A DNA stretch of 27,641 nt from assembly GCA_027082895.1 (NCBI GenBank), contig JALWTJ010000112.1:1-27641 (forward strand), in the 5' to 3' direction. The notes beneath the pieces were generated by a model, which saw only the letters and a list, made by a program, of their open reading frames with translations, was not told the origin of the DNA and made no database searches. The DNA comes from Hyphomicrobiales bacterium (GTDB lineage Bacteria; Pseudomonadota; Alphaproteobacteria; Rhizobiales; Devosiaceae). Position 1 is the stretch's first letter; each line of letters opens with the position of its first letter. The position numbers were made by a program, and so were the translations under genes. This document shows, piece by piece, positions 1,508 through 24,074 of this stretch.

Positions 1508-1554
1508 CCTGACAGATTTTCCTCGCCGGAAGTGAGGGAAAGTGAAAAATGATG

Positions 1555-1584
1555 TTTGGGGCGGTCTTGACGGATCGCCCCGAA
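1555..1584 (+). terminator. Intercistronic stem-loop after frcB
   Basis: TTTGGGGCGGTC-N6-GATCGCCCCGAA, 12-bp stem with two G-U pairs, followed by TTTC. Confidence 0.5.
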
Positions 1585-1652
1585 TTTCACCTAACTGGAC
1601 ATCGGGGGGAAGCAGATCCCTCTCCACGTCGTTGATTGTCAGGGCTTCGGGA

Positions 1653-4205: not shown

Positions 4206-4877
4206 CTACATGTTGTCCATCAACTCGATCTTGATGGTTCCCCAGCCCATGCCATCCACGCTGGTGATGGTCTTGGTGCCTTCATCGTGGCCGATATCAT
4301 AACGGGAGAATTCGGCCTTGATGCCGTGATCCCCCATCATGGTGTCATTGCCCATGTTGTCGTCCTTCATGGTGTCATTGCCCATGGAGTCATCCTTCAT
4401 GGTATCGCTGCCCATGGAGTCATCCTTCATGGTGTCGCCGCCCATGGAGTCGCCCATCAGGCCCGACAGGTCGACAACGGCGGTCAGGTAATTGTCCGGC
4501 ACCTCGGTGGGCGCAACCATGGCAAGGAAGCGCAGCATCTGCACCTTGGTGTCCAGCTGGAAGGTAACGGACTTGCCCGGAGCCAGCAGAACCCCCGGAG
4601 GGCCATCTTCCCCGTGAACGACCGAGGCATCGGTGCCGATACGAGCCACCAGCTTGGCCGGATCACCGGTCAGGATCTGCTCCTCGGCTTCCCGGGTCAC
4701 ATAGTGGCCGCGAAAGATATCCCGGTCATGGGCGGTGGCCACGATCACGATGGGCGCGATCAGTTCACTGTCCATGTGGTTGGTGATGGTGATCTTGTAG
4801 GAAGCGGCAAGGCTTGCAGAGGCGCTCAACAGGGTGAAGGCGGAAATGGCGCCGGCGGTCAAAAGTGTCTTTTTCAT
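4206..4877 (-). CDS. Secreted spondin_N-like protein with an internal Met-rich pentapeptide repeat (223 aa)
   Basis: ATG 4877 with GAGG RBS; signal peptide MKKTLLTAGAISAFTLLSASASLA; segments YKITITN, LLAPGKSVTF, MVAPT..D and YDIGHD resemble bacterial spondin domains; the repeat lies between the last two segments. Confidence 0.7.
   Translation of the reverse strand: MKKTLLTAGAISAFTLLSASASLAASYKITITNHMDSELIAPIVIVATAHDRDIFRGHYVTREAEEQILTGDPAKLVARIGTDASVVHGEDGPPGVLLAPGKSVTFQLDTKVQMLRFLAMVAPTEVPDNYLTAVVDLSGLMGDSMGGDTMKDDSMGSDTMKDDSMGNDTMKDDNMGNDTMMGDHGIKAEFSRYDIGHDEGTKTITSVDGMGWGTIKIELMDNM
4338..4457 (-). repeat. Coding tandem repeat, about 4 x 30 nt (8 x 15 nt), encoding M-[GK]-x-D-[STN]
   Basis: Units such as catggtgtcattgcccatggagtcatcctt; protein MGDSMGGDTMKDDSMGSDTMKDDSMGNDTMKDDNMGNDTMMGDHG. 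Confidence 0.9.
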
Positions 4878-4979
4878 GATTGTCCTCAAGTTTGTTGGTG
4901 TGCATGCACGCATTGTGATTTTTGCGTTTGGTGCATGCCCGACAGCTAACCCCCGTGTGCTTTGGAGGCGTAAGCGGGG

Positions 4980-5024
4980 GGTTAGGATTTGGTTAGGAAG
5001 CAACACAAGCCTGTGAAAGCCTGT
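4980..5024. promoter_or_regulatory. Two direct-repeat pairs, candidate OmpR-family binding sites
   Basis: GGTTAGGA at 4980 and 4991 (11-bp period); AAGCCTGT at 5007 and 5017 (10-bp period); between the divergent spondin-like and response regulator genes. Confidence 0.5.
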
Positions 5025-5117
5025 TTTTTTGGGGATTTTTTCACGCATTACGGGCTAACATGTGTACCGCGTTCTCCACCGGAGGGCCGATAGATATTCT
5101 TTGGGAAACACGTTTTG

Positions 5118-5909
5118 ATGCATTCGGACTCTGGATATCCTGACCCCGATCGCCAGCCGGAAAGAAAGATCCTGGTGGCCGAGGATGACGATAATATCCG
5201 CAATCTGCTCGCCTCCTACCTGTCGGTGAGCGGATTTGCCACCGTGCCCGTTGCCACCGGGTCCGCTGCCATGCGCAGCCTGGAAAGGGAAAGGTTCGAT
5301 CTGGCCGTGCTCGACATCATGCTGCCGGATGTGAACGGCCTGGACATTTGCACCCGGGTGCGCGAGCACCACAACATGCCCATCCTGATGCTGACGGCCC
5401 TTGGAGAAGAACGGGACCGCATCCGCGGCTTCGAAGTGGGGGCCGATGACTACCTGGTCAAGCCGTTCTCCCCCCGTGAACTGGTGGCCCGGGTCAAGGC
5501 CATCCTGCGCCGCACCGCCCCGGGGGATGGGGATGCCCGCCTGCCGGCCGGAGATTCTCCCCCCGGTTCCGCGCCCTATCCCATTCGCGTGGATATGGAA
5601 TGCAAGAGCGTTCACTATCTGGACCGGGAGCTGGAGCTGACCCGCTACGAATTCAAGATCCTGTCCGCCCTCGTGCGACGCCCCGGTGTCGTCTTTTCCC
5701 GCGACGAACTGCTTGATCTGCTCTATCCCACCGGCGTCAGCGTGGTGCCCAAGGCCGTGGACGTGCATATCCACAACCTGCGCACCAAGCTGGGCAAGGA
5801 AGGTGCAAAGCTGATCCAGACCGTGCGCAGTTTCGGTTACCGGGCCGCAAAGGTGGACCCTTCCGCTGCCCCGGATCAACATATCCTGCCCGGCACCCGC
5901 GATGATTGA
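5118..5909 (+). CDS. OmpR/PhoB-family response regulator (BaeR/CopR-like)
   Basis: Receiver ILVAEDD, phospho-acceptor VLDIMLP, GADDYLVKPF, and C-terminal wHTH VDVHIHNLRTKL...IQTVRSFGY. ATG 5118 (TTG 5115 alternative). Confidence 0.9.
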   Translation: MHSDSGYPDPDRQPERKILVAEDDDNIRNLLASYLSVSGFATVPVATGSAAMRSLERERFDLAVLDIMLPDVNGLDICTRVREHHNMPILMLTALGEERDRIRGFEVGADDYLVKPFSPRELVARVKAILRRTAPGDGDARLPAGDSPPGSAPYPIRVDMECKSVHYLDRELELTRYEFKILSALVRRPGVVFSRDELLDLLYPTGVSVVPKAVDVHIHNLRTKLGKEGAKLIQTVRSFGYRAAKVDPSAAPDQHILPGTRDD

Positions 5910-7047
5910 CTCCCGTCCTCCCCGCAAGACCTTCCCCATCCTGCTGTTGCAACTGGTGGTGGCCAACATTCTGGTGGCCATGGCGGTGACGGGCACGCTC
6001 TATGTCCTGTTCACCCGCCTGATGGATGCCTATTTCGAACGCCTGATGCACGAGTTCGACATTTCCCCCACCAAGCTCAATTCCATGTTCACCAGCGATG
6101 TCGAACAAAGCCTGTGGTGGGGTATCGTCGTGGCTCTTGCGCTGGGGATCCTCCTGTCCTGGTTGCTGACCCGCACCCTTCTGCGCCCTATTTCCAAGAT
6201 GGTTCGTGCCACCGAAAAGATCGCCGATGGCGACCTGTCCGCCCGTGCCCCCGACCTGAAGGGGGAACTGGGCACCCTTTCCTGGCACATGAACCACATG
6301 GCCGCGGCCCTTGAATCCCAGGAGCAGGGCCGCCAGCAATTGCTGCGCGATCTCAGCCATGAATTGCGCACCCCCCTGACCAATGTTCGTGGCTATATCG
6401 AGGGCATGGAAGACGGGGTCTTTCAGCCCGGTCCCGAGGTTTTCGGCGTGCTCAATGCCGAGGTAAAACGCCTGAGCGGCCTGATCGATGATCTGAGCGA
6501 GCTTTCCCTTTCCGAGGAAGCCCCCGACCGGCAGAAGCTGGAGCCGGTCGACCTGCGGGCCCATGTGGATGCGGTTATCGCCGCCCACCGCGCCCGCATG
6601 ATCGAAGCCGGCTTCCGTATCAGGGTGCAGGAGATTGGTACGCCCACGAAAGTGATGGCGGAGCCGGGAAAGCTGCAACAGATCTTCAACAATGCCGTGG
6701 CCAACATGGTGCAATATTCCGATTGCCGTTTCGTGCCCGCCGAACAGCAGGGCCCGGCCGCCTGTGACGGTGCGGTCATTCTGGACTGGTCCAGCCCCCG
6801 GCAGGTCAAGGTCTGCTTTGAAAACTGGGCCGCCCCCATTCCCGAACAGGACATGGCCCACCTGTTCGATCGCTTCTACCGGGTGGACAAGTCCCGCTCG
6901 GGCACCGCCAGCAATGTCGGGCTGGGGCTGGCCATCATGAAGCGGTTGGTGGGCGCGCTGGGGGGGCGGGTCTGGGCCAGCCAGACCCGGGGACGTTTCC
7001 AGCTTTTCGTCGCCCTGAGCCGTACCGGCACATCGGCCCCTGCCTGA
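5902..7047 (+). CDS. HAMP-domain sensor histidine kinase with two TM helices and a short periplasmic loop
   Basis: H-box LSHELRTPL, HAMP, HATPase LFDRFYRVDKSR...GLGLAI; overlaps the response regulator stop. Confidence 0.9.
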   Translation: MIDSRPPRKTFPILLLQLVVANILVAMAVTGTLYVLFTRLMDAYFERLMHEFDISPTKLNSMFTSDVEQSLWWGIVVALALGILLSWLLTRTLLRPISKMVRATEKIADGDLSARAPDLKGELGTLSWHMNHMAAALESQEQGRQQLLRDLSHELRTPLTNVRGYIEGMEDGVFQPGPEVFGVLNAEVKRLSGLIDDLSELSLSEEAPDRQKLEPVDLRAHVDAVIAAHRARMIEAGFRIRVQEIGTPTKVMAEPGKLQQIFNNAVANMVQYSDCRFVPAEQQGPAACDGAVILDWSSPRQVKVCFENWAAPIPEQDMAHLFDRFYRVDKSRSGTASNVGLGLAIMKRLVGALGGRVWASQTRGRFQLFVALSRTGTSAPA

Positions 7048-7060
7048 TCGCGCGGATCGT

Positions 7061-7963
7061 TCAGCCCGTTTTCGTCATGGCGGAAACCGCCTCCCTTGCC
7101 ACGTCCATGAAGGTGCGGATGAGGCGGCTTTCGCCCCGTTCCGTCAGGCAAATCAGCGCCTCCTGCATCGGCTCGGACAGCCCCGCAATGTCAAGGGGTA
7201 CCAGGCGTCCATCATGGCCGAATTCCGCCCGCGACACGAAACCGATACCGGCCCCCGCCGCCACGATCTCGCGCACCGCCTCCCGACCCTCCGCCTCGAT
7301 GGCCGGGGTCAGCGCGATGCCGTTTCGTTTCGCATACCGTTCCATTATCTGTCGCGTTCGCGACCCCTTTTCCCGCATGACCAGGGGCAGTTTCTGCAGG
7401 TCGTCCGCCGTCAGTACCTGCCCCTTTTCCAGCCCGAATTTTCGGTCCGCACAAAGGCTTGCGGCTGCAAAGGCAATCACCGGCGTCGAACTGAGGGGCA
7501 GGCACTGGAAGCGGGCGGTGGCGGGAACCTCCCCCAGCACGCCGATTTCGGCGCGGTAATTGATCAGGGCATCGCGCACATCGTCACTGTTGCCTGCGCG
7601 CAGGGAAACGAAGATACCGGGAAACCGGGTCCGGAAGGTGCTGAGCACGTCCAGTACATGGAACGGGGAATCGGCGATGATGCGCAGCTTTCCCGCGCGC
7701 AATGCCCGACTTTCCGCCAGAAATTCGCGTGTCTGTTCCTCCGCTTCGAACAGGCGGCGCGTATGAGCCAGCAGCTTTTGGCCGAAAGGGGTCAGGCAGA
7801 CCTGTTTGTGGCTGCGGTCGAACAGCAGCACGTCATGTTCGGCCTCCAGCCGGGCCACCTGGTCGGAAAGGGCCGGTTGCGTCAGCCCCAGCGCGCGGGC
7901 CGCCTTCGAGAACCCGCCATGAATGGCCACATGGTGAAAGGCGCGCAACTGGACATAACGCAT
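7061..7963 (-). CDS. LysR-family regulator of the aminoethylphosphonate-catabolism-associated type
   Basis: HTH QLRAFHHVAIHGGFSKAARALGLTQPALSDQV; ESRALRAGKLRI, GNSDDV, EGREAVREIV and CLTERGESRLI segments resemble the TIGR03339-type family; divergent from phnW. Confidence 0.85.
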   Translation of the reverse strand: MRYVQLRAFHHVAIHGGFSKAARALGLTQPALSDQVARLEAEHDVLLFDRSHKQVCLTPFGQKLLAHTRRLFEAEEQTREFLAESRALRAGKLRIIADSPFHVLDVLSTFRTRFPGIFVSLRAGNSDDVRDALINYRAEIGVLGEVPATARFQCLPLSSTPVIAFAAASLCADRKFGLEKGQVLTADDLQKLPLVMREKGSRTRQIMERYAKRNGIALTPAIEAEGREAVREIVAAGAGIGFVSRAEFGHDGRLVPLDIAGLSEPMQEALICLTERGESRLIRTFMDVAREAVSAMTKTG

Positions 7964-8134: not shown

Positions 8135-9313
8135 ATGGATTACACCATCGATATTCCCGAAATGGGCGAGCCGCGGCTTCTGACCCCCGGTCCCCTGACC
8201 ACAGCCACCGCCACCAAGCAGGCCATGCTGAAGGACTGGGGGTCATGGGACGGCGATTTTCGCCAGATGACGGCCCGCATGCGCAAGAACCTGCTCGCCC
8301 TGATCGGTGACCGGGAAGGGGCGTTTGACTGCGTGCCCATGCAGGGCAGTGGCACCTTTGTCGTCGAAGCCATGCTCGGCTCGCTCCTGCCCCGCACCAG
8401 CAAGACGCTGGTTCTGGCCAACGGTGCCTATGGACAACGCATCGCGCGCACCCTGACCTATCTTGGGCGGGACCATGTCACCATCGACAAGGGGGACTAT
8501 CTGCCCCCGCGCGCCGACGAGGTAAGCGCAGCCCTTGCAGCGGATTCCGCCATCACCCATGTGGTGGTGGTGCATTGCGAAACCAGTTCGGGCATTCTCA
8601 ACCCCATCGAAGAAATCGCGCAGGCCGTGCACGCGGCGGGCCGCAAACTTCTGATCGATTCCATGAGCGCCTTCGGGGCCATCGACCTTGATTGCAACGC
8701 CATTCCCTATGAAGCCATCGTCTCATCTGCCAACAAGTGCATCGAGGGCGTTCCCGGTTTCGGTTTCGTCATCGCCCGCAAGGCGGCCCTGGAAGCGGCG
8801 GCGGGCAATGCCCATTCCCTGTCCCTGGATCTGCATGATCAGTGGCAGGTGATGAACGAAACCGGCCAGTGGCGTTTCACCCCGCCGACCCATGTGGTGG
8901 CCGCCTTTCTTGCCGCCCTCGACCTGCACGAGAGGGAAGGGGGCGTTGCAGCCCGCGGCGCCCGTTATGCCGCCAATCGTGATGTGCTGGTGGCCGGCAT
9001 GCGCAGGCTGGGCTTTGAAACCCTGCTTGATGCACGCTGGCTGTCGCCCATCATCGTCACCTTTTTCAATCCGGCCGATACCCGTTTCGCGTTTCCCCGA
9101 TTCTATGACCTGATGAAGGACAAGGGCTTCATCATCTATCCGGGCAAGCTCACGGTGGTGGACAGTTTCCGTATCGGCTGCATCGGTAATCTGGATGCAG
9201 CACTGATGCAGCAGGTTGTCACGGCCGCCGCCGAAGCGCTCCGCAAAATGGGTGTGGACAGTGCCCGTCCCCCCGAAAAGGCATTGCGTGAACGGGCCAT
9301 CCTGGCCGCCTGA
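8135..9313 (+). CDS. phnW: 2-aminoethylphosphonate--pyruvate transaminase
   Basis: [36 protein letters not shown] lysine in [30 protein letters not shown]. Confidence 0.95.
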
Positions 9314-9362: not shown

Positions 9363-10211
9363 ATGACCCAATTCAACGAATTCACCTGGCAGCGCAGCTA
9401 TCGGGGCGGCGTCAAGGCGCTGGTGCTGGACTGGAGCGGCACCCTTGCCGACGCCTATGTCATCGCCCCGGCGGTGGTGTTCGTCGAAGTGTTTGCCAAG
9501 CAGGGGGTGGAGATTTCCATGCTCGAGGCGCGCGGCCCCATGGGATTGCGCAAGGATCTGCATATCAAGAAGCTGACCGAGGATCCGGTAATTGCCGAGC
9601 GCTGGAAACAGGTCAAGGGTGCCTATCCGACCCAGAAGGACGTGGACGCCATGTTCGCGGATTTCGTGCCCGCCCAACTGGCTTGCCTGAAGAAATACAC
9701 CGCCCTTTTGCCCGGGGTGAAGGACGTGATGCTGCGCCTGCAGGCGCGTGGCATCAAGATCGGGGCTTCCACCGGCTTCATCCGCTCCATGGTGGATGTG
9801 CTGCTCAAGGACTGTATCGCGCAAGGCTTCACCCCCGATGCAACCGTTGCCGGTGACGAGGTGGTCCACGGCGCCCGTCCGGCCCCCCACATGGTCTATC
9901 GCAATCTGGACCTGATGGGTATTGATCCCATCCAGTCCGTAGTCAAGGTGGACGATACCGCATCGGGCGTCGGGGAAGCCCTGAACGCAGGCTGCTGGGG
10001 GGTGGGCGTGGTGCGCTACTCCAACTACATGAACATCAATTCCCTTGAAGAGGCCGAACAGCTCGACGATGCGGAAATTGCCCGGCGCATGGATCATACG
10101 CGGGACATTCTGCTCAAGACCGGCGCTCACTATGTGATCGACAGTCTGGCCGATATCGAACCGGTGATCGAGGATATCAACGCACGTCTGGCCCGCGGCG
10201 AACGGCCCTGA
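9363..10211 (+). CDS. phnX: Phosphonoacetaldehyde hydrolase (phosphonatase, HAD family; 282 aa)
   Basis: DWSGT nucleophile motif, Schiff-base lysine in PMGLRKDLHI, KVDDT motif; ATG 9363 after GAGGA; directly downstream of phnW. Confidence 0.93.
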   Translation: MTQFNEFTWQRSYRGGVKALVLDWSGTLADAYVIAPAVVFVEVFAKQGVEISMLEARGPMGLRKDLHIKKLTEDPVIAERWKQVKGAYPTQKDVDAMFADFVPAQLACLKKYTALLPGVKDVMLRLQARGIKIGASTGFIRSMVDVLLKDCIAQGFTPDATVAGDEVVHGARPAPHMVYRNLDLMGIDPIQSVVKVDDTASGVGEALNAGCWGVGVVRYSNYMNINSLEEAEQLDDAEIARRMDHTRDILLKTGAHYVIDSLADIEPVIEDINARLARGERP

Positions 10212-10441
10212 CGGTTTCCTGCCTTTCCATGGCATCGGTTCCACCGGACCGTGGGGGGGAGAGGGAAAATGTTGGGGGCAGGCAGAACGTTTCTGCTGCA
10301 CCCGAAAAATTGCGGGGCGCGCCTGTAAAAGGCCGCCCCCATGATTTTTCACTCACCCCTTGATAATTCATATCATGCCGCCCTGCATCACGGTGCAGGT
10401 AATACCAGAGTCTCTGGTGCTCCCCGTCCGGCGCGGCAATG

Positions 10442-12133
10442 TTATTGGGCGGCCTTCTCTTCCCGATTGTCCATCTCTTCCACCAGCCGGGTTTCCAGCA
10501 ACTGGCCATTCTTGTACAGGATCGGGTAGGCCACGGCTGCGATCTGGGAATTCAGATCCTTCAGGGCCCGCAGGGTTTCCAGATGAATGTCGCTGCTTTC
10601 AAAGCTCTCCTCCAGCCCCTCGCGCAGGCGTTTGAGATGCTTCTTGCGGCTCTTGTGTTCCTTGCTGGCCATGTTGGCCTTTTCTTCCATCAGCAGCCGC
10701 GCACTTTCCAGATCTTCGGACAACAGCACGTTGAACGCCAGGGTCATGTTGGCCATGACCCGCTCATGCAGCCCCAGAAGTTCCTGCCACCCAGCCTTGG
10801 AAAATTTCAGGTGCTTGCGCTTCTTTTCCGCAGCAAGCTGCATCAGTTTTTTTGAAATGATGTCCCCGGCCACTTCCAGGTTGATGGCATATTCGGTCAG
10901 TTCGCGGGCGTGGCGTGCCTCCGATTTTGTCATGCGTTCCCGCGGAATAGCGGCCACATAGCGCCGGATATCGCTCAGGGCTTCGTTGACCTCCTTGTCC
11001 AGATCCCGGATGAATTCCATCTGTTCGGTGTCCCCGCTCTGGTAAAGCTCCATCACCGGGCGCGCCATCATTTCCACGATTTCCCCCATCCGGAGAATTT
11101 CCCGCGTCAGGCTGGCGAGGGCCATTTGCGGATTGTTGATCACCCGATGGTCAAGGGCGCTCACCGGCTTCATCCGCTCCCCGTCTTTTTCCGCCACCGG
11201 GTCGGAAGGCAGAAGGGAAAAGACCGGCTTTTCCAGAAGGCTGACGAAAGGCAGGGCGGAAATCAGCAACAGGATGTTGAAGGCCAGGTGAACCGAAACC
11301 AGGGTCTGCCCGTCGCCGAACCCGCGGAACAGGCCCAGAACCGGCGTGTTGTTGACGATCAGCAGGGCGATGATGGCGCCGATTCCGCGCAGGATCAGGT
11401 TGCCCAGCGGCACCCGGCGTGCATCCACCGCCATTCCCCGGGACAGCCAGATGGGCAGGGTGGCACTGCCCAGATTGGCCCCCAGGATCAGCGAAACTCC
11501 GGCCCCCACCGGCAGCGCCCCCAGGGACACGAAGGTAACGAACATCAGGATCGCGGCCACGCTGGAATGCATGACGAAGGTCACCGCCGCCCCCACGAGG
11601 AAAGCGGTAACATAGTCCGAGCGCAGATATTCGGCGATGGCCGGCAGGAAGTCCCCGTCCCGGATCGGGCCCATGGCCTCCCCGATCAGGCGCAGCGCCA
11701 GCAGGATCAGGGCCACGCCCAGCAGGATACGCCCCACCTGCCGGAGCACGGGGCCCTCTACCTTCAGGAACAGATAGCCGCCCGCCGCCAGCAGCAGCGG
11801 GATCATCCAGGACAGCTTGAACGACAATATCTGGATGACCAGCGCCGAGCCCACATCGGCCCCCAGCACCACCGACAGCCCCCCGGTGAAGGAGAGCAGC
11901 CCGCTGCCGGCAAAACCGGACGCCAGAAGGGCCGCGGCCGTGGCGCTCTGCAGGATGATCGCCAGCAGCACTCCGGCAAAGGCCGTCTGCAACCGGTTTT
12001 CGCGCCGGGCGGTGATGATGCGGCGGAAGCTGGAGCCCATGGACCGCTCGATGCCCGTCTGCACCATGCGCACGGCAAACAGCAGCAGCATGGTGGCGCC
12101 GGCCAGATTGAGAATGAAAATGAGTGTCGTCAC
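10442..12133 (-). CDS. Na/Pi cotransporter family protein (NptA/YjbB-like) with C-terminal PhoU-like region
   Basis: Repeated QSATA / LGADVGS and HSSVA / LGANLGS motifs, N-terminal TM helices and helical C-terminus; GTG start with AAGGAG RBS. Confidence 0.9.
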   Translation of the reverse strand: MTTLIFILNLAGATMLLLFAVRMVQTGIERSMGSSFRRIITARRENRLQTAFAGVLLAIILQSATAAALLASGFAGSGLLSFTGGLSVVLGADVGSALVIQILSFKLSWMIPLLLAAGGYLFLKVEGPVLRQVGRILLGVALILLALRLIGEAMGPIRDGDFLPAIAEYLRSDYVTAFLVGAAVTFVMHSSVAAILMFVTFVSLGALPVGAGVSLILGANLGSATLPIWLSRGMAVDARRVPLGNLILRGIGAIIALLIVNNTPVLGLFRGFGDGQTLVSVHLAFNILLLISALPFVSLLEKPVFSLLPSDPVAEKDGERMKPVSALDHRVINNPQMALASLTREILRMGEIVEMMARPVMELYQSGDTEQMEFIRDLDKEVNEALSDIRRYVAAIPRERMTKSEARHARELTEYAINLEVAGDIISKKLMQLAAEKKRKHLKFSKAGWQELLGLHERVMANMTLAFNVLLSEDLESARLLMEEKANMASKEHKSRKKHLKRLREGLEESFESSDIHLETLRALKDLNSQIAAVAYPILYKNGQLLETRLVEEMDNREEKAAQ

Positions 12134-12158
12134 GATATCTCCTTGCGGGCCAACCGGC

Positions 12159-12980
12159 TCACTTCCCCTTTTTCTTTTTCTCTGCGGCCACCAGTACCTT
12201 CACCTTCCAGCGTTCCATGGCGCGCGCAAATTTCTCGGGCAGGGGCTTGTCGCAAACCAGATAGTCCACTTCGTTGGGGGCGCAGGACACCATGGGCGCC
12301 GACTGGTCCAGCTTGGAATGGTCCACCGCCATGATGGTGTGGCGCGCCTGACGCACATAGACCTGGGCCAGTTCGGCCTGGGACTGTTCGGACACCAGAA
12401 ATCCTTCCTCCGGGTCAATGGCCCGGGCGGAAAGGATGGCAAAATCGGCGCGGAACTTGGCCGCATATTTCTGTGTGGGGGTGCCGAAGGTGCCCCCGGT
12501 CTGCCCCTGCAGTTCACCGCCGGCCAGAAAGACCCTGTTCCCCCTCCGGGTCATCAGGGTCTGGGCAACGGTCATGGAATTGGTGACAATGGTCAGGTTG
12601 TGCGCATGGCGCAGCGCCTCGGCAACAAACACGCTGGTGGAACCCGTATCCATGAACAGCGTCGCCCCGTCGTCAATCAGGGATGCGGTCCGTTCAGCAA
12701 TCGCGCGCTTGGCATCGGCCCTCTCCCCGATGCGTTTGTGCAAGGCGGTAAGGGCAAGATCACTGCCCAGATAGACCCCGCCATGGACCCGGGAAACCCG
12801 TCCCTCCCGGGACAGTTTTTTCACTGTCCGGCGGATTGTTTCTTCCGACACTTTCATGGTATCGGCAAGATGGCTTGTCCTGGCAGACCCCCCAAGACGC
12901 TGCAGGGTTTCCAGCAGTTCAAGCGCGCGGTGAGTCTTGCCGCCTTCTCGTCGTTTCTGTTCCTGTTCCACTTTGACCAT
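12159..12980 (-). CDS. DeoR/GlpR-family transcriptional regulator
   Basis: HTH VSEETIRRTVKKL...RVHGGV; sensor motifs AKRAIA, FMDTGSTS, IVTNS, LAGG, DHSK. Confidence 0.9.
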   Translation of the reverse strand: MVKVEQEQKRREGGKTHRALELLETLQRLGGSARTSHLADTMKVSEETIRRTVKKLSREGRVSRVHGGVYLGSDLALTALHKRIGERADAKRAIAERTASLIDDGATLFMDTGSTSVFVAEALRHAHNLTIVTNSMTVAQTLMTRRGNRVFLAGGELQGQTGGTFGTPTQKYAAKFRADFAILSARAIDPEEGFLVSEQSQAELAQVYVRQARHTIMAVDHSKLDQSAPMVSCAPNEVDYLVCDKPLPEKFARAMERWKVKVLVAAEKKKKGK

Positions 12981-13005
12981 GGGGCTGCATAAATCACGAA
13001 TGGAT

Positions 13006-13077
13006 AAAAATCCACACTAAACGTGCGTTTTCAGGGAAAATTGATTAATTTTCCGGACGTTTTTGTGGGTTTTTGTG
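13006..13077. promoter_or_regulatory. Operator-like motifs in the DeoR / PMH divergent spacer
   Basis: Dyad GGAAAATT-N4-AATTTTCC (13035-13054); direct repeat TTTTTGTG at 13060 and 13070; AAAAATCCACA at 13006 is a near-inverted copy of TGTGGGTTTTT at 13064. Confidence 0.45.
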
Positions 13078-13116
13078 TGTTTCAGCAGGTGCGCCGCCTT
13101 TTTCCGGGAGAAAATC

Positions 13117-14682
13117 ATGTCCGAAACCCGCTCGCCCCGTTCCGGCAGGAAAGTCCTGTTCATCATCATTGACCAGTTGCGGGCCGATTGCATCCATGGC
13201 CGTCTGGCCGATCATGTGAATCTGCCCAACATTGCGGCCCTGCAATCTGAAGCCATGAGCTTTGATGCCCATTTCTCGGTAACCAACCCGTGCGGTCCTT
13301 CCCGGGCCAGCATTTTCACCGGCCTTTATGCCATGAATCATCGCTCCATACGCAACGGCACGCCCCTTGACGGCAACAGGACCAACGTTGCCCTGGAAGC
13401 GCGCAAGGCCGGATACGACCCGCTATTGTATGGCTATTCCGATACCACCATGGACCCGCGGTTCTTCCACCCCATGGACCCCCAGTTGCACAGCGAGGAG
13501 CGGGTCCTGCCGGGCCTGCGTGAAATGCTCGAAATGCGCTATCTGGAAAGCTACCCCTGGCGCGCCCATCTGGTGGCACGGGGCTATGATGTTCCCGACT
13601 ATTCCCGTTTCTACGAATCCGTCTCCCCCGACCCGGACCGACCGGCCCGTCCGGACGATCCGCCCTTTTACCGGGCCGAGGACAGCGATACCGCCTTTCT
13701 CGCCGACAAAGTGCTGGAGGATCTGGCGGTTCGCCGCCATCAGGACTGGTTTGCCCTTGTCACTTTCCTGCGCCCCCATCCTCCCTTCGTGGCCCCGGCG
13801 CCCTATAACAGGATGTATGACCCCGCCCGGCTGCCCCTTCCCATCGGCCTGCCCACCCGGCAGGAGGAAGCCGCCGTTCACCCCTTCATGAAGGCCGCCC
13901 TTGTGGCCCCGTCCATGGTTCAGACGGTCAAGGGCTGCGATGGGCAGATCGAAAACGGCAATGTTGAAGACATTCAGACCCTGCGTTCCATCTATCTGGG
14001 GCTGGCAACGGAGGTGGACCGGCATGTGGGCCGGATCATCGATTTCCTCAAGGACTCCGGACAATATGACGACACGCTGATTTTCCTGATGGCGGACCAC
14101 GGGGAAATGCTGGGCGATCATCATATGTGGGGAAAACAGAACCCTTACGAAGCCGCCTACCGGGTACCCCTGATCATCCGGCATCCCGACATGAAGGACG
14201 GGCACGGAACGCGGACGGACATGTTCACCGAGTCGGTGGATATCATGCCCACCATTCTGGAGTGCCTGGGCCGTCCGGTCCCTGCCGGGTGCGATGGCCG
14301 ATCGCTTCTGCCCCTGTTGCGGGGGGAACAGCCGGCAGACTGGCGTGACGCTGTGCATATGGAACTGGATTTTGGCGAACCGGATCAGGATACTCCGTGG
14401 CAACAGGCCACCGGCTGTTCACTGGACGAGGCCAATCTGGCCATCCTGCGTGAAAAACGCTTCAAGCTGGTCCATTTCAACGGAGGGCTGCCGCCCTTGC
14501 TGTTCGATCTGGAAACGGATCCGGACGAACTGCACGATCTGGCCGCAGATCCCGCCCATACCCCGCAGCTCTTGCGCCTGACGCGAAAACTGCTCAGCCT
14601 GCGCATGCACCACGCCGACCGGACTCTGGCCAATGTGCGCATAACTCCGCAGGGTGCCGTGAACTTTCACGATGGAACCTGA
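13117..14682 (+). CDS. Phosphonate monoester hydrolase / phosphodiesterase (PMH/PehA family, alkaline phosphatase-sulfatase superfamily), cytoplasmic, 521 aa
   Basis: DQLRAD metal motif, CGPSR formylglycine motif, TGLYAMNHR, GYSDTTMDPR, RPHPP, DHGEMLGDH, WGK and C-terminal HADRTL resemble Rhizobium/Burkholderia PMH; no signal peptide; ATG 13117 with GGGAG RBS. Confidence 0.8.
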   Translation: MSETRSPRSGRKVLFIIIDQLRADCIHGRLADHVNLPNIAALQSEAMSFDAHFSVTNPCGPSRASIFTGLYAMNHRSIRNGTPLDGNRTNVALEARKAGYDPLLYGYSDTTMDPRFFHPMDPQLHSEERVLPGLREMLEMRYLESYPWRAHLVARGYDVPDYSRFYESVSPDPDRPARPDDPPFYRAEDSDTAFLADKVLEDLAVRRHQDWFALVTFLRPHPPFVAPAPYNRMYDPARLPLPIGLPTRQEEAAVHPFMKAALVAPSMVQTVKGCDGQIENGNVEDIQTLRSIYLGLATEVDRHVGRIIDFLKDSGQYDDTLIFLMADHGEMLGDHHMWGKQNPYEAAYRVPLIIRHPDMKDGHGTRTDMFTESVDIMPTILECLGRPVPAGCDGRSLLPLLRGEQPADWRDAVHMELDFGEPDQDTPWQQATGCSLDEANLAILREKRFKLVHFNGGLPPLLFDLETDPDELHDLAADPAHTPQLLRLTRKLLSLRMHHADRTLANVRITPQGAVNFHDGT

Positions 14683-14959
14683 CACATGCTGTCAGACGGG
14701 CCCGGTTAGGGGGCACCTCTGATGGGAAAGGCAGGCGGGGTAGTGCGGAGGCGAATGGCAGACAGGCATGCACAACCGGAAAGGCGTGGGAGAAGAGAGA
14801 GGAACGCGCGCGCCGGGGCGATAGGACGGCATGCCCGCCGAATTTCCAGCCCGGCAGGCCGCCGCCCCGTTCATGGCTGACATTGCCATGCGGCCCCAAA
14901 TGCTCGTGGTCGCCCCTTTGACCTGAGCGGAAAGGTGTACGCGTCCGGCTGAACAGGCC

Positions 14960-16096
14960 CTATTTGCCCTTTGACCCGGGCTTGCTCTTTGGCTTGGTCT
15001 TTCCCTTGTTCTTGCCGGATGCCTTGGCCTTTTCAGCCTTTGCCGTCGCCGCATGCCGCTTGTCGCTGCGCTCCTTGGCCGCCGCGTCCTCCGCTTCGAA
15101 AACTTCGACCAGCTCCTGCCAGCGATGGCAGGCCACATTGTGCTGATGGGCCGCATGATCCAGAAGCGGCTCCTCGGTACGGCACCGGTCGATCGCAAAA
15201 CGGCACCGGGTCTGGAACTTGCAGCCCGGCGGCGGATTGGTGGGGGAGGGGATTTCCCCCTCCAGCTTGTCCACCACGCTGTCATCATCCGGATCAAGGG
15301 ACGGAATGGCCGACAGCAATGCCCGCGTATAGGGGTGGCGTGGATTGGCGAACAGTTCCCGCGTTGGCGCCGTTTCCACCAGCCGCCCCAGATACATCAC
15401 CGCCACATGATCGCACACATGGGCGACCACGCTCAGATCGTGGCTGATGAACAGGAAGGTCAGCCCCATTTCCTGCTGGATATCCTTGAGCAGGTTGAGT
15501 ACGTCCGCCTGAATGGATACATCCAGCGCCGCCACGCTTTCGTCCGCTACCACGAAGCGCGGACGTGACACCAGCGCCCGGGCAATGGAGATGCGCTGCC
15601 GCTGCCCGCCCGAAAATGCGTGGGGGAAGCGGCGCAGATGTTCCAGATTGAGGCGGCACTTGGCGGCAATTTCGCGCACCCGTTCGTCCGTTTCCGCCTT
15701 TGACGCGGTAATGCCCATTACTTCCAGCGGTTCGGCTATGATGTCCCGAACCGTCATGCGCGGGCTCAGGGCCGCGTAAGGATCCTGAAAGATCAGTTGC
15801 GCACGGGTGCGATAGTCCTTGAGATCACCCTTTTCGATGGCCGCCAGATCATACTTCTTTTCCCCATCATCATAGGTCAGGTCGCCCCGCGTGATCGGTA
15901 CCGCCCGCAGCAACGCCCGCCCCAGCGTTGTCTTGCCGGAGCCGGATTCCCCCACCAGTCCGAAGAAACTGCCCTTTTCGATGTCCAGATCGACACCCTC
16001 GACAGCGCGCACGACGGGTTTCTTGCCCAATCCACCCCCGCGTACGCCAAAGTGAACCGAAAGATCGCGAACTGAAATTAGCGGCGTATCACTCAT
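14960..16096 (-). CDS. Opp/Dpp-type ABC transporter ATP-binding protein (DppF-like) with Lys-rich C-terminal tail
   Basis: [28 protein letters not shown] and C-terminal Cys motif GCKF..RC...C...C. Confidence 0.92.
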
Positions 16097-17109
16097 GTGG
16101 TCTTGGTTCCCTGATCATTGTTGGCCGGATCCAGCAGATGGCAGGCCACCTGATGCCCTTCCCGGGTCTGGGTAAACTGTGGAATGTCTCTGGCACAGCG
16201 TCCCTGAATGACCACCGGGCACCGAGTATGAAACACACAGCCGGAGGGCCGTTCCAGCGGTGAGGGGATATCCCCGGGGATCGGCACCAGCGGCTTGTCC
16301 AGATCGTCCAGCTGCGGCAGGGCGGCAATCAGCCCTTGCGTGTAGGGATGTCCGGGATTGCGGATCACTTCCCGGACCGGCCCCTGTTCCACCAGTCTCC
16401 CCAGATACATCACGGCCACCTTGTCGGCGGTCTGCGCGATCACGCCCAGATCGTGGGTGATGAAAATGATCCCCATGTGGAAATCCTTCACCAGATCCTT
16501 CATCAGGTCGATCACCTGCGCCTGAATGGTCACGTCCAGGGCCGTCGTGGGTTCGTCCGCAATCAGCAGTTTGGGCTTGGTCGAAAGGGCCATGGCGATC
16601 ATGGCGCGCTGGCGCATGCCCCCCGACAATTCGAAGGCAAACTGCCTGAAGCGGGTGCTGGCATCCGAGATTCCCACCCGCGCCAGCATTTCGATGGAAA
16701 GCTCCGTCGCCTGCCTGGTGGTCATGTCGGAATGGATCTGCAACTGTTCCACCATCTGGTCGCCGATGGAGATGGCCGGGGCAAAGCTGGCCATGGGCTC
16801 CTGGAAGATCATCGAGATCGCCCCGCCGCGCACCACCTTGAGGTCGCTGGAGGTCTTCAGGGACATGATGTCCACCGGTCCGTCTTCCAGATGCAGGGTG
16901 ATCCGGGTCTGCTCCCCATATACCGCATTGCTCGGATTCAGCTTCATCAGGGATTTGGCGGTTACCGATTTTCCGGAACCGCTTTCCCCGACGAGTCCCA
17001 TGACCTCACCCTGCTCCAGGGAAAAGGACACATCGTCCACCGCCGTGATCCGCCCCTCGTCCGTATCGAACTGAAGATTGAGATGTTCAACGTCTATAAG
17101 CCGGCTCAT
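16093..17109 (-). CDS. Opp/Dpp-type ABC transporter ATP-binding protein (DppD-like)
   Basis: GESGSGKS, LSGGMRQR, ADEPTTALDVT; ATGA overlap with the next gene. Confidence 0.92.
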   Translation of the reverse strand: MSRLIDVEHLNLQFDTDEGRITAVDDVSFSLEQGEVMGLVGESGSGKSVTAKSLMKLNPSNAVYGEQTRITLHLEDGPVDIMSLKTSSDLKVVRGGAISMIFQEPMASFAPAISIGDQMVEQLQIHSDMTTRQATELSIEMLARVGISDASTRFRQFAFELSGGMRQRAMIAMALSTKPKLLIADEPTTALDVTIQAQVIDLMKDLVKDFHMGIIFITHDLGVIAQTADKVAVMYLGRLVEQGPVREVIRNPGHPYTQGLIAALPQLDDLDKPLVPIPGDIPSPLERPSGCVFHTRCPVVIQGRCARDIPQFTQTREGHQVACHLLDPANNDQGTKTT

Positions 17110-18281
17110 TAACTGGTTTCCCCGTATGGGTCTGCCGCATCCCGCAGTCCGTCACCGACGAACACGAATGCCAACACGAGAGTGATAAAGAAAATGACGG
17201 GTATGAAATACCATTGGTAGTTGAGCAGAACATCAGCACTGGTGACGTTCTGCAACATGACCCCAAGGGAATTCACCGGATCCTTCAGCCCCAGCCCGAT
17301 AAAGCTGAGGGCGGTTTCCGAAAGCACCATGTAGGGAAAGGAAATCACAAGGTCCACAATGATGTAGGAGGTGAAACTGGGCAGCAGGTGCTTGCGGATG
17401 ACATGGCTTGCCGATGCGCCGCACAGCTGGGCCGCCAGCACATATTCCTGATTGCGTTCCGTCAGCAGATGGGTGCGCACCCGCCGCGCCAGTGTCGGCC
17501 AGCCGATGAAGCCCAGGATGATCGAGATGAAAAAGAACCGGGTTTCCGCGCTCCAGGTATCGGGCACGAATGCCGCCAGCGCCATGAACAGGGGGATCGC
17601 CGGAACGGTTCGGATTGTGTCCGTGATCATCTGCAGGATGCTGTCCAGCCAGCCCCCGTAATAGCCCGAAACGCCACCGATGATCAGGGCCATGACAAAG
17701 GCAATGAACACGCCGATGGTGCCCACCGCCATGGACGTGTTGATGGCGGCAAAGGTACGCGAAAAGATGTCCTTGCCCGTTGAATCGGTGCCGAACAGAT
17801 GGATCTGCCCCTTGTCCACCCCGAACAGGTGGGTGTCAAAGGTCATGCCAAACAGCTTGTAAGGGGAGCCCTTGACAAAAAACTGCATGTAGCGGCGGTC
17901 TTCGAGCCCCGTCTTGACCGTCGTGACCCAGCGGAAATTGGTCTTGATCGAACGCTCCCGGGTTGTCGTATAGATGAACGGGCGCGCCGAGAAACCGTTT
18001 TCATCCCAGAAACGGGGGATTTCGGGTGCACCGTTCTGATATTCCTTGTCCCGCCCGGCAATGGTGGGGTCGTACGGGGTAAGGAAGGGCGAAAATAGGC
18101 CGGACAGGATCAGTATGATCAGCACCCACGCGCCCACAAGTGCAGACTTGTTCTTCTTGAACCGTTGCCAGATCAGCTGGCGCTGGGAGGCGGTAAAATA
18201 GGCTTCCTTGGCCTTCTGGGCGGCCGCTTCCCGGGCAGTGGTCGTTGGGGTGGTGTTGGATGTGTCGGTCATGGCACTCAC
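17109..18281 (-). CDS. Family-5 ABC transporter permease (DppC-like) with enlarged extracytoplasmic loop
   Basis: IWQRFKKNKSA, HLFGTDSTGKDIFSR, EAA-like EYVLAAQLCGAS, LSFIGLG; GTGA overlap with the upstream permease. Confidence 0.9.
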   Translation of the reverse strand: MSAMTDTSNTTPTTTAREAAAQKAKEAYFTASQRQLIWQRFKKNKSALVGAWVLIILILSGLFSPFLTPYDPTIAGRDKEYQNGAPEIPRFWDENGFSARPFIYTTTRERSIKTNFRWVTTVKTGLEDRRYMQFFVKGSPYKLFGMTFDTHLFGVDKGQIHLFGTDSTGKDIFSRTFAAINTSMAVGTIGVFIAFVMALIIGGVSGYYGGWLDSILQMITDTIRTVPAIPLFMALAAFVPDTWSAETRFFFISIILGFIGWPTLARRVRTHLLTERNQEYVLAAQLCGASASHVIRKHLLPSFTSYIIVDLVISFPYMVLSETALSFIGLGLKDPVNSLGVMLQNVTSADVLLNYQWYFIPVIFFITLVLAFVFVGDGLRDAADPYGETS

Positions 18282-19282
18282 TTCAGGATTGATCGACGTA
18301 CGCGCGGGTCCATTACGGCCAGTAGCAGGTCGGTCAGGAAGTTGATGGTGACGATGGAGGCCGTCAGCAGGAAAATGATGGCGCCGGCCAATTGCTGGTC
18401 ATTGGATTTGGCCAGCGCATCGATCAGCAGCGAACCGGCCTCGGTAAGGGTCAGGATCAGTGCCACCACCGGCAATTCGTTGAAAATCCGGTTCAGGTCG
18501 AACCCCAGGGAATTGATGATGGGGGCGAGAGCATGCCGTGCCGGATAGCGCATCAGCAGACGGCGCCCGGACACCCCGCGCGCCTCCGCGGCGGTTACAT
18601 AGAGCTTTCCGATTTCATCGGACATCAGGGCGCGCACCGTCTGGATGGCAAAGGCGGTTGCCGACCAGCCCAGAATGAACACCGGCAGCCAGGCATGCTG
18701 AAGAAAATCGACCAGCTTGGGCCATGACCACGCCGCGTCCCGGAACTCCTTGGAAAAAAGCCCGGTCAGGCTTTCGCCAAAATAGATGGTGGAAAACAGC
18801 ATGATCATCAGCGCCAGCAGGAAGTTGGGCAGCGCCAGCCCGAGATAGGAAATGAAACGAAGAACATTGTTGACGATCCGGTTTTTTGAAACCGCCGCAT
18901 ATATGCCCACCGGTATCGCGATCATGTAGGCAAGCACCAGGGCCGCCAGACTGAGACCCAGACTGATCTTGAACTTGTCCCCCAGCAACTGGGAAATGTT
19001 GAGCCTGAGAATGCAGCTGTCGCCGAAATCGCCCTGAAAGGCATACCAGACCCATTTGCCCCAGCGTTCGATATAGGGCCTGTCCAGACCCAACCGGACC
19101 CGTTCGGCCTCGATATCGGCGGTGGTGATGACAGCCCCTTGCGTGTTCTTGAAGGCGATGTAGCGCTCGGCACAGTCACCGGGCACAAGTTCCATCAGGG
19201 AAAAGACGATGAAGGAAACCAGCAGCAGCGTCAGGATGGCCAGCACGGCGCGCGTTGCGGCAAATCGGGCAAATTGAAACAT
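18278..19282 (-). CDS. Family-5 ABC transporter permease (DppB-like)
   Basis: LVPGD, LGLDRP, GDFGDS, LALPNF, LYVTAAEARGVS, MDPRVR. Confidence 0.9.
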   Translation of the reverse strand: MFQFARFAATRAVLAILTLLLVSFIVFSLMELVPGDCAERYIAFKNTQGAVITTADIEAERVRLGLDRPYIERWGKWVWYAFQGDFGDSCILRLNISQLLGDKFKISLGLSLAALVLAYMIAIPVGIYAAVSKNRIVNNVLRFISYLGLALPNFLLALMIMLFSTIYFGESLTGLFSKEFRDAAWSWPKLVDFLQHAWLPVFILGWSATAFAIQTVRALMSDEIGKLYVTAAEARGVSGRRLLMRYPARHALAPIINSLGFDLNRIFNELPVVALILTLTEAGSLLIDALAKSNDQQLAGAIIFLLTASIVTINFLTDLLLAVMDPRVRRSILK

Positions 19283-19356
19283 GTCCCCCCCTGGAAAACT
19301 CGGGCATTCTGAAAGTCGGGTGCGGGCAGAGAGCTCCGCCCGTACCGGTTCGTGAC

Positions 19357-19390
19357 GTTCGCCCCCGGCCGATATTGGCCGGGGACGAAC
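19357..19390 (-). terminator. Intercistronic stem-loop after the SBP gene
   Basis: Minus strand GTTCGTCCCCGGCC-N6-GGCCGGGGGCGAAC, 14-bp stem with one G-U pair. Confidence 0.55.
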
Positions 19391-19408
19391 AGTTTTACAT
19401 CACGCGGT

Positions 19409-21457: not shown

Positions 21458-21708
21458 ATTGGGTTTTCTCCGTTCAGGTTGGTAAAAACTATGCGCGATG
21501 GCCGCACGGGGCCGGCGAAATACGGTATTTTTCTTTCAGATGTGACTTCGCGGCCTGCTGACCGTTCCGCACAGGTACCCGGCACGTTTCCCGTCCCGTA
21601 TGGCCTGTGCAGTCTGGCATTTGCCCGCTTCTCCTCCTCCCAAAGGCAGCGATTGCGCACGGGCACTGATTTCTTGATTCATTTTTTCTCAGCGCCCTCA
21701 GGTGAACA

Positions 21709-21758
21709 AGAATGAACGTGCGCTCGGGCTGTGTCAAGAAACTTACAGGCGGCTGTAA
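21709..21758 (-). promoter_or_regulatory. Putative promoter of the ABC operon with adjacent dyad
   Basis: Minus strand TTGACA (21737-21732), 17 bp, CATTCT (21714-21709); dyad TTACAG-N4-CTGTAA at 21743-21758 just upstream. Confidence 0.5.
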
Positions 21759-21990
21759 CAGTTTCACCACGCTGCTGCGAAGATTTCGTGACATTTGGGG
21801 CGGTCAGAGAGGGCGCCCGGAATTGAAGAACCACGAAGGGCAGCGCGGGGTTTCCAGAGCCTTTCGTGAAGGGTGATGAGAAGTTTTGTCAAAAATAGTA
21901 ATGAAACATCAAATGGATATGGAAGGTGCCCTGATCAGATGACATCCGTATTTTGGTAAAGGGTTCCCCCGGCCCCGGATATTGATTCGT

Positions 21991-24069: not shown

Positions 24070-24074
24070 TTTTC

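Follow-up and report, generated by a model that had tools for sequence, protein, structure and literature searches.

Gene context of a PMH-family hydrolase beside phnW and phnX suggests a transport-linked step for cleaving organophosphorus esters

What does a PMH-family hydrolase do beside genes for 2-AEP catabolism? Characterised PMHs have been assayed on artificial aryl esters, and a literature search found no report of their natural substrate. The question is raised by a 27,641-nt stretch of DNA (henceforth the window) from a marine Rhodobacterales genome, in which the gene context of such a hydrolase offers a testable natural job for a family known mainly from test-tube promiscuity. The original prediction cast the enzyme, encoded next to phnX, as a possible accessory step that releases 2-AEP or a DeoR-inducing phosphorylated polyol and is activated in trans by a formylglycine-generating enzyme (FGE). 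Accessory enzymes of another kind are familiar from phnWX and phnWAY clusters, where the Pbf enzymes (PbfA lyase, PbfB-D FAD enzymes, PbfF racemase and PbfG/PhpC dehydrogenases) are recurrent but optional and presumably convert AEP-related compounds into substrates of the hydrolytic pathway (PMC10590968, PMC8154272, PMC12366243, PMC13576164). Our literature search found no characterised case of an ester-cleaving accessory step in AEP clusters. The gene pmh has been described next to phnW/phnX as well as within a phnW-phnY-phnA cluster of Amphidinium-associated bacteria (PMC13608971, 2026), a report of adjacency only, without comparative analysis, a link to an importer or Na/Pi transporter, an experiment on the PMH, or a proposal beyond annotation.

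The open reading frame as called covers 13063–14682 (+ strand) and matches PF00884 at 142.6 bits (residues 30–403) and SGSH_C at 71.8 bits. The most likely start is the ATG at 13117, which has GGGAG just upstream and in favour of which the TTG at 13063 was set aside; the gene thus spans 13117–14682 and encodes 521 amino acids. All the PMH-type motifs listed in the original prediction (DQ, CGPSR, GY, RPHPP and GK) were recovered, as IIDQ (D19 Q20), C59-G-P-S-R63, GY107-S-D109, R-P-H221-P-P, D327-H328 and WGK340, and every one of these residues is invariant in an alignment, A1, of 11 sequences spanning 40–100% identity to the window hydrolase. The N-terminus, MSETRSPRSGRKVLFIIIDQ, contains neither a hydrophobic core nor a twin-arginine signal, in agreement with the earlier view that Sec and Tat signals are missing, and we count the cytoplasmic location among the firm results, together with family membership, the catalytic residues and the conserved linkage of the genes.

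Comparison with solved structures places the enzyme closest to SpPMH (4UPK; 574 bits, E 3e-171, ~62% identity in an end-to-end alignment over residues 29–532), with E values of 1e-107 to 1e-118 for AtPMH (4UPH), BcPMH/PehA (2W8S) and RlPMH (2VQR), all four of which it resembles in fold, length and C-terminal region. The bit scores for the four PMH structures are 574, 399, 366 and 362, against 193 and 185 for the arylsulfatases SpAS2 and SpAS1 and about 111–122 for choline sulfatases. PMHs are marked by Tyr at LysA, Asp or Thr at HisA and Gln at AspB, where arylsulfatases carry Lys and His at the first two positions (PMC5488252). The hydrolase has the PMH-type Tyr107/Asp109 and D19-Q20, invariant in A1, and is therefore a D-type PMH by Tyr107 and Asp109; it also shares with characterised PMHs the CGPSR nucleophile motif, the DQ, Asn, His and Lys residues and the Tyr-x-Asp of the D-type enzymes. 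An arylsulfatase or choline sulfatase identity, named in the original prediction as the outcome that would speak against it, is ruled out by the scores (574 bits to SpPMH versus at most 193) together with the Tyr/Asp pair. Judged by its sequence, the hydrolase genuinely belongs to the PMH clade within the alkaline phosphatase superfamily. Unlike the characterised enzymes, it comes with a context that proposes a natural substrate, and at 485 bits it falls below the curated PehA cut-off of 900 (NF045661), which makes it a relative of Burkholderia PehA and not an equivalog.

The enzyme could nevertheless act as a functional sulfatase on sulfated sugars brought in by a carbohydrate-type importer, its PMH-like features being phylogenetic baggage. 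The sulfatase fold and CxPxR motif, a substrate-binding protein (SBP) that resembles oligosaccharide binders, and the measurable sulfatase side activity of PMHs (PMC5488252) would fit such a role. Tyr and Asp, however, replace the Lys/His pair on which efficient hydrolysis of sulfate esters depends, identity to a characterised PMH is 62%, and the gene is conserved alongside phosphonate genes and a phosphate transporter instead of sulfur genes. We consider this reading very improbable.

A phn-type LysR regulator gene (7061–7963, − strand; TIGR03339 phn_lysR 304 bits, below the cut-off of 341; PF03466, PF00126) diverges from phnW (8135–9313, +; 2-AEP:pyruvate transaminase, NF010006 565 bits against a cut-off of 296, TIGR02326 490 bits). 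Downstream of phnW follows phnX (9363–10211, +; phosphonoacetaldehyde hydrolase, TIGR01422 286 bits, cut-off 220), whose ATG at 9363 follows GAGGA and whose end at 10211 lies 230 bp from the stop of the Na/Pi gene, in keeping with the adjacency first noted. That gene (10442–12133, −) encodes a YjbB-like Na/Pi cotransporter and candidate Pi exporter with PF02690 in two stretches (136 bits) and a C-terminal PhoU domain (PF01895, 37.6 bits, residues 346–427), and it also exceeds the Na_Pi_symport cut-off (NF037997, 107.5 bits over 50). The two Na_Pi_cotrans repeats plus PhoU domain reproduce the architecture of E. coli and Salmonella YjbB, which promotes Pi export (PMC7980370); export of Pi is also reported for cells given 2AEP as their only source of N (PMC8316502). 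Unlike yjbB, the gene lies here under a DeoR regulator or, elsewhere, within phnWX operons, which suggests dedicated disposal of Pi from organophosphorus catabolism.

The regulator gene (12159–12980, −) is the first of the deoR-Na/Pi pair and encodes a DeoR/GlpR-family protein with both the HTH (PF08220, 34.9 bits) and the C-terminal DeoRC sensor domain (PF00455, 144.7 bits); it scores below cut-off against all named equivalogs considered (GlpR, AgaR, SrlR and others), including the GlpR models (152 versus 331). The coordinates bear out that the hydrolase gene diverges from this pair and that exactly 25 bp separate its two members. Between deoR and the PMH gene lie 136 bp, a shared promoter region with a candidate DeoR operator (13010–13082) made up of one CCACA box (13014–13018), two tandem TTTTTGTG(G/T)G boxes (13060–13082) and, between them, the palindrome GGAAAATT-N4-AATTTTCC (13035–13054). 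The boxes are invariant or near-invariant across seven congeners, CCACA/TGTGG repeats also occur in the equivalent intergenic region of other genera, and the motif does not occur elsewhere in the window, where no such boxes were found upstream of the importer genes. A phosphorylated polyol might be the DeoR effector, but this part of the original prediction is purely conjectural.

The importer itself had been omitted from the original prediction. Converging on the PMH gene are genes for DppF-, DppD-, DppC- and DppB-like ABC importer ATPases and permeases (14960–19282, −; PF00005 plus oligo_HPY twice, BPD_transp_1 plus OppC_N, and BPD_transp_1), a convergent arrangement in which PMH and importer are not co-transcribed and which, like the missing DeoR boxes upstream of the importer, counts against a linked module in the window, followed by a family-5 SBP gene (19409–21457, −; PF00496 190 bits). 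The 682-aa SBP belongs to a carbohydrate-binding subgroup and, unlike the PMH, has a clear Sec signal; its closest relatives of solved structure are SPH1118 (7VER, 229 bits), 5IPW and the alpha-galactoside binder AgpA (6EPY), and its likeness to sugar binders, at 228 bits or less, is limited. SBP orthologues (at least 60% identity) occur in nine PMH-bearing genomes and in G028, a fragmented genome in which no PMH was detected.

We compared 90 PMH loci from species-representative genomes, counting as AEP-pathway genes phnW, phnX, phnA, pbfA or the FAD oxidase (TIGR03364) within 10 kb. A family-5-SBP importer (DppB/C) accompanies PMH in 34 loci and a PotD-like importer in 10. Same-strand operons run PMH>SBP5>DppBC... 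(L051, L053, L054, L060, L091, L099, L101) or SBP5...>PMH (L052, L024), and in Devosia and Aestuariivirga PMH is the last gene of an SBP_bac_6 ABC operon. In the PMH tree, the window enzyme falls in a marine clade (SH-aLRT 100) in which an importer adjoins PMH in 32 of 43 rows. Rhizobium and Mesorhizobium sequences and a single Burkholderiaceae sequence lie outside this clade, and no phosphonate genes were found in their contexts. The most conserved partner of PMH is thus the family-5 ABC importer, not phnX: PMH and importer form the core, which is all that Amylibacter (L029) has within 10 kb, and AEP catabolism is an optional shell.

That shell recurs widely all the same. At least one AEP-pathway gene was present in 27 of the 90 loci. 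These loci show at least 10 different gene orders and fall into four separate lineages of PMH, and several are same-strand arrays, for example LysR>PhnW>PhnX>PMH>SBP5>DppBCDF; gene identities were confirmed by profile (PbfA NF049939, 672 bits; PhnA TIGR02335, 504 bits). Na/Pi-PhoU genes accompany PMH in 19 of the 90 loci, sit within phnWX operons in L021 and L061, and also adjoin PhnW/PhnX genes in PMH-less genomes. Among 41 relatives, seven of the eight PhnX-bearing genomes carry PMH. The link to AEP catabolism therefore holds well beyond the window, and from this context we infer an ester-cleaving accessory role, an idea supported because the linkage spans so many gene orders and lineages. 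Like the Pbf enzymes, PMH is found repeatedly, though not obligatorily, beside phnW together with phnX or phnY/phnA. The Pbf enzymes modify the carbon chain or amine of free phosphonates, whereas PMH would act one step earlier, at the ester, and, unlike them, has its own importer alongside.

Close relatives qualify this picture. PMH is retained in seven of eight congeners, and G004 shows a joint loss of PMH, SBP5 and Na/Pi; in half of the congeners PMH has no phnWX linkage. Three congeneric genomes (G001, G002, G006; 94–98% complete) share the window's arrangement of PMH, importer and DeoR-Na/Pi, and in them PhnW, PhnX, PhnA, PhnJ and PhnZ are all absent. The predicted release of 2-AEP by PMH gains from the recurrent linkage, but these genomes show that it is not essential to the module and cannot be its only purpose. 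Such genomes would be expected if PMH were mainly a phosphodiesterase for imported non-phosphonate diesters (glycerophosphodiesters, or phosphoethanolamine- or phosphocholine-substituted sugars), yielding an alcohol and a phosphomonoester for a phosphatase to finish, with phnWX part of a shared organophosphorus or nitrogen-scavenging island and not in a substrate-product relationship. PMHs are indeed good phosphodiesterases (PMC5488252), deoR and Na/Pi are separated by an IMPase/HisN-family phosphatase gene in G005, G006, L042 and L045, and a GlnA-like/AldDH/Fe-ADH set, potentially able to process an amino alcohol, turns up repeatedly in the vicinity. This account leaves unexplained, however, the same-strand phnW-phnX-PMH or LysR-PMH arrays and the PMH genes beside pbfA, phnA and phnY, which together span the four lineages, as well as the presence of PMH in nearly all PhnX-bearing relatives, and we think it rather unlikely.

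Maturation of the nucleophile may be less conventional than supposed. As stated in the original prediction, the window has no FGE gene, but activation by an FGE in trans is doubtful, because profiles for FGE and anSME (PF03781, TIGR03942) found neither in the whole MAG (90.8% complete) nor in six of the seven PMH-bearing congeners, including genomes 97–98% complete. One might conclude that the phnWX adjacency is coincidental and that PMH serves some unrelated or housekeeping purpose or no purpose at all, being unmatured and inactive without FGE; half of the congeners lack the phnWX link. Against this stand the invariance of all catalytic residues over sequences 40–100% identical, the retention of the gene in all but one congener, the recurrence of the linkage in many gene orders and taxa, and the production of active PMHs in E. 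coli, a host that has no FGE (PMC5488252). We regard coincidence as quite improbable.

On balance, we think it somewhat probable that PMH is the cytoplasmic catalytic core of a transport-linked module for organophosphorus esters, feeding PhnW and PhnX in this genome. The family-5 importer, with its carbohydrate- or oligosaccharide-like SBP, would take up a small organophosphorus ester, whose P-O-C ester bond PMH would then cleave in the cytoplasm; in this genome and many others the acid freed would be 2-AEP or a close analogue. LysR-controlled PhnW and PhnX would convert 2-AEP to acetaldehyde and phosphate, and the YjbB-like Na/Pi-PhoU transporter would dispose of or balance the released phosphate. 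DeoR would control PMH and the deoR-Na/Pi pair through the CCACA-box repeats. The substrates are probably of the class 'X-O-P(O2)-R', with R an aminoethyl-type head group, because PMHs are roughly as efficient on phosphodiesters as on phosphonate monoesters and because some congeners hold the module without C-P cleavage genes. This class would span AEP esters and the analogous phosphodiesters, for example sugar or glycerol esters of the phosphoethanolamine type, and PMH probably takes the latter as well.

A broader version, which we advance tentatively as possible though short of probable, is that PMH works with the ABC importer and the YjbB-like transporter as a dedicated marine system of wide occurrence, which imports small phosphonoglycan or phosphonolipid fragments (AEP/HAEP esters and phosphoethanolamine analogues), de-esterifies them in the cytoplasm and exports surplus phosphate. 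If true, the PMH family would gain its long-missing natural function, and the missing de-esterification step linking esterified phosphonates of marine organic matter to free-AEP pathways would be found; the Cys nucleophile would, moreover, be matured or employed in these bacteria in the absence of every known formylglycine-generating system.

Further genes lie beyond the importer. An EamA/DMT membrane protein gene (21991–22827, −) resembles the 'phosphonate utilization associated' family (TIGR03340 phn_DUF6, 153 bits, below the cut-off of 288) and is present in 15 of the 90 PMH loci, where it mostly separates the importer from phnX or pbfA. Co-directional with the importer are genes for an Fe-ADH, an aldehyde dehydrogenase and a GlnA-like gamma-glutamyl ligase (22924–27000, −), whose membership of the PMH module is uncertain and which may possibly handle an amino-alcohol or aldehyde product; the trio lies inside a DeoR-IMPase-Na/Pi array in L042 and is partially present in L034 and L045.

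A large share of natural phosphonate occurs as esters, found in phosphonolipids, in phosphonoglycans and in the high-molecular-weight organic matter of the sea, and to our knowledge the characterised phosphonate catabolic pathways and transporters act on free AEP. This gap would be bridged by a conserved module that unites an importer, a phosphate transporter, a phosphonate monoester hydrolase (PMH) and either PhnWX or PhnWAY, and such a module offers concrete candidates for an enzyme, a binding protein, a regulator with its operator and, possibly, a Pi exporter. PMHs are textbook cases of catalytic promiscuity, and our literature search returned no report of a physiological substrate. A pmh gene beside phnW/phnX and within a phnWYA cluster has been noted without analysis (PMC13608971, 2026), and a PMH-like enzyme has been speculated to free phosphonate esters of marine polysaccharides (PMC5649143). 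A search for earlier functional work tying PMHs to AEP clusters gave a single descriptive mention, and PMH is missing from the Parma group's systematic studies of such clusters.

The gene order of the window (GC content ca. 60%) was established from an ORF listing and HMM scans. A phn-type LysR gene on the reverse strand (7061-7963) is followed by PhnW (8135-9313) and PhnX (9363-10211) on the forward strand, by Na/Pi-PhoU (10442-12133) and DeoR (12159-12980) on the reverse strand, and by the hydrolase on the forward strand (13117-14682). Beyond it, all on the reverse strand, lie a complete family-5 ABC importer comprising DppF, D, C, B and the substrate-binding protein (SBP; 14960-21457), an EamA protein (21991-22827), and an Fe-ADH, an aldehyde dehydrogenase and a GlnA-like ligase (22924-27000). 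The original prediction had placed the hydrolase, deoR and Na/Pi genes correctly and named the right hydrolase motifs; the sole correction concerns the start codon, which is most likely the ATG at 13117 behind a GGGAG Shine-Dalgarno sequence and not an upstream TTG. As also claimed, the hydrolase lacks a signal peptide, whereas the importer SBP has an obvious one. The Fe-ADH ORF shares ca. 200 bp with the aldehyde dehydrogenase ORF, so that the Fe-ADH gene probably starts later than called. At the other end of the window, a sugar ABC system (362-3505, forward) precedes a gene (4206-5048, reverse) whose secreted product matches MxKDx pentapeptide repeats below cut-off (TIGR02953, 32 bits); this gene adjoins an OmpR-type pair of response regulator and histidine kinase (5115-7047, forward) and has no relation to the PMH finding.

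The best solved relative of the hydrolase is SpPMH (4UPK; E 3e-171, ca. 62% identity over residues 29-532), followed by AtPMH, BcPMH and RlPMH. PMHs carry a Tyr where arylsulfatases have a Lys, and an Asp or Thr where these have a His (PMC5488252). The hydrolase has Y107 and D109 at these diagnostic positions, and because both are invariant in an alignment of 11 sequences spanning 40-100% identity, together with D19, Q20, C59, P61, R63, N80, H221, D327, H328 and K340, we assign it by sequence to the D-type PMHs. Clustering with aryl- or choline-sulfatases, set beforehand as an outcome that would overturn the proposed role, is not what the comparison shows: choline sulfatases match the hydrolase much less well than PMHs do, and so do the 'new' arylsulfatases SpAS1 and SpAS2. 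It is no equivalog of Burkholderia PehA, scoring 485 bits against a cut-off of 900. The hydrolase adds a member to an established enzyme family and occurs in a so far uncharacterised variant of the system.

Neither an FGE-sulfatase domain nor an anSME was found in the source MAG (2.56 Mb, 90.8% complete). The FGE domain was likewise not found in six of the seven PMH-bearing congeners, with a match only in G007, nor was anSME in the five congeners searched (G001, G002, G006, G007 and G008). Since the Cys-type (CGPSR) enzyme is nevertheless conserved in seven of eight congeners, these genomes point to a maturation system other than FGE or anSME, or to the use of an unmodified nucleophile. Replacing the nucleophile by Ser costs only about tenfold (PMC5488252). 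A Cys-type enzyme conserved in a genus without a known FGE bears on the 'third' route of sulfatase maturation.

Among public genomes, the source MAG is closest to Rhodobacterales MAGs that bear the labels Amylibacter, Marinosulfonomonas and UBA3080. For comparison we collected 10 PMH loci from kin genomes and 80 from species-representative genomes with 10-kb flanks. Genes were called by a GC3-weighted choice, as the longest-ORF rule at 60% GC took reading frames antisense to phnX and to the SBP gene; proteins were clustered, recurrent clusters named by HMMs and families re-mapped by tblastn. Across the 90 loci plus the window, the neighbours of PMH are DppB (34 loci), DppC (33), a long family-5 SBP (30), DeoR (20), Na/Pi-PhoU (19), PhnW and PhnX (18 each), EamA and phn-LysR (15 each), PbfA (12), a PotD-like importer (10), an IMPase-family phosphatase (6), PhnA (5) and a TIGR03364 FAD oxidase (4). 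At least one dedicated AEP-pathway gene lies near PMH in 27 loci. Gene order varies greatly, and besides the window layout the following types occur: LysR< >NaPi>PhnW>PhnX>EamA>PMH in the related genome G011, <PbfA<PhnY<PhnA<PhnW >LysR>PMH>SBP5>DppBCDF in Marivita, Silicimonas and Roseovarius, PhnX>PbfA>EamA>SBP5>DppBCDF>PMH in Salaquimonas, LysR>PhnW>PhnX>PMH>SBP5>DppBCDF in Thalassovita, PotD-ABC< >PMH <PhnX<FAD-oxidase in Microbaculum, and PMH <LysR >PhnW>PhnX in a gammaproteobacterium. Chance would seldom bring single-copy genes of a 3-5 Mb genome to within 10 kb of one another, and the variety of arrangements argues for selection on linkage, with the proviso that kin loci are not independent.

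In the PMH tree, the window falls inside a marine clade of 43 rows (SH-aLRT 100), 19 of which have AEP genes and 32 an importer adjoining PMH, and AEP linkage recurs in three further separated lineages. Neither AEP genes nor an importer occur near PMH in the Rhizobium/Mesorhizobium clade, whose members we take to represent RlPMH-like enzymes and whose contexts (glyoxalase, DLH, GNAT, M19 dipeptidase, DAG-kinase-like) give no functional hint. One locus, L024 (G015:C8), holds two PMH paralogues ca. 3 kb apart, of which one immediately follows SBP5-DppBCDF in the same orientation and the other adjoins a DeoR-like gene.

Within the window's own genus, PMH is present in seven of eight relatives; one match (L005, G005:C52:4179-5711) has a single in-frame TAG and may be a pseudogene or reflect a sequencing error. 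The congeners G001, G002 and G006 (94-98% complete) keep SBP5-DppBCDF, PMH and DeoR-Na/Pi in the window layout, and PhnW, PhnX, PhnA, PhnJ and PhnZ were found nowhere in these three genomes. In the congener G004, PMH, the SBP orthologue and Na/Pi are all missing together, and Amylibacter has PMH and importer only, within 10-kb flanks. On these grounds the core unit is PMH plus importer, with DeoR-Na/Pi and the AEP genes as successive optional shells. Of 41 relatives, eight have PhnX, and seven of these eight also carry PMH; AEP catabolism thus looks like something added to the PMH module and not the reverse. The original view of PMH as an accessory step of AEP clusters is therefore partly supported: the linkage holds in 27 loci, but the AEP genes are optional, and the interpretation is widened to a PMH-importer core.

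As to the substrate, the nearest solved relatives of the SBP bind oligogalacturonides (SPH1118), alpha-galactosides (AgpA), chitin oligosaccharides and mannosides. Other PMH lineages have an importer of the PotD or SBP_bac_6 type instead, and proteins that bind polyamines or AEP are known from these families. As a check on whether free AEP can enter the cell, known AEP-binding proteins (PhnS, PhnS2/AepX-like) were searched for and gave no match above cut-offs; since a contig edge holds part of a PhnS2-like gene (C189; 106 bits, covering half of the model), they are not counted as absent. In some relatives an IMPase/HisN-family phosphatase gene, absent from the window, sits between deoR and Na/Pi (L019 of G006, 11535-12329; L020, L042, L045, L021, L099), and this insertion is a hint of a phosphomonoester intermediate. 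The GlnA-like, aldehyde dehydrogenase and Fe-ADH genes are met again within or next to DeoR-IMPase-Na/Pi arrays (L042, L034, L045) and may provide a gamma-glutamylation route for a PMH-released amino alcohol; three loci contain an FGGY kinase. PMHs hydrolyse both phosphonate monoesters and phosphodiesters (PMC5488252). Taken together, the SBP and importer types, PMH chemistry, phosphatase, ligase trio and kinase fit sugar or polyol esters with an aminoethyl-phosph(on)ate head group as the substrates we infer. AEP esters would be cut by PMH and pass to PhnWX, and phosphoethanolamine-type diesters would be processed by the phosphatase and the amino-alcohol route.

Seven congeners conserve the boxes of the 136-bp deoR/PMH intergenic region, namely one CCACA box and a tandem pair of TTTTTGTG(G/T)G boxes, and CCACA/TGTGG repeats with ca. 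10-bp spacing occupy the same intergenic position in other genera (L017-L023, L032, L038, L042, L043). These boxes (13010-13082) are probably the DeoR operator. The motif was looked for in the rest of the window, also ahead of the importer operon, and does not occur outside this gap. Scanning 10200-15100 for promoters and terminators yielded no signal beyond that expected from shuffled sequence. No solved structure matches the DeoR protein at E 1e-10. Between the SBP gene and EamA lies an unusually long non-coding gap (21458-21990, 533 bp) without DeoR boxes.

The Na/Pi-PhoU protein has the architecture of YjbB, which promotes Pi export (PMC7980370). Bacteria using 2AEP as nitrogen source export Pi, with no exporter named (PMC8316502), and the literature we searched gave no relevant report on phosphate exporters in phn clusters. 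A role as Pi release valve in phosphate-insensitive AEP mineralisation is plausible for this candidate exporter. Na/Pi-PhoU genes are found inside phnWX operons at two PMH loci (L021, L061), and homologues lie within a few kb of PhnW/PhnX in five PMH-less related genomes (G027:C3, G030:C216, G031:C29, G036:C289 and G037:C3).
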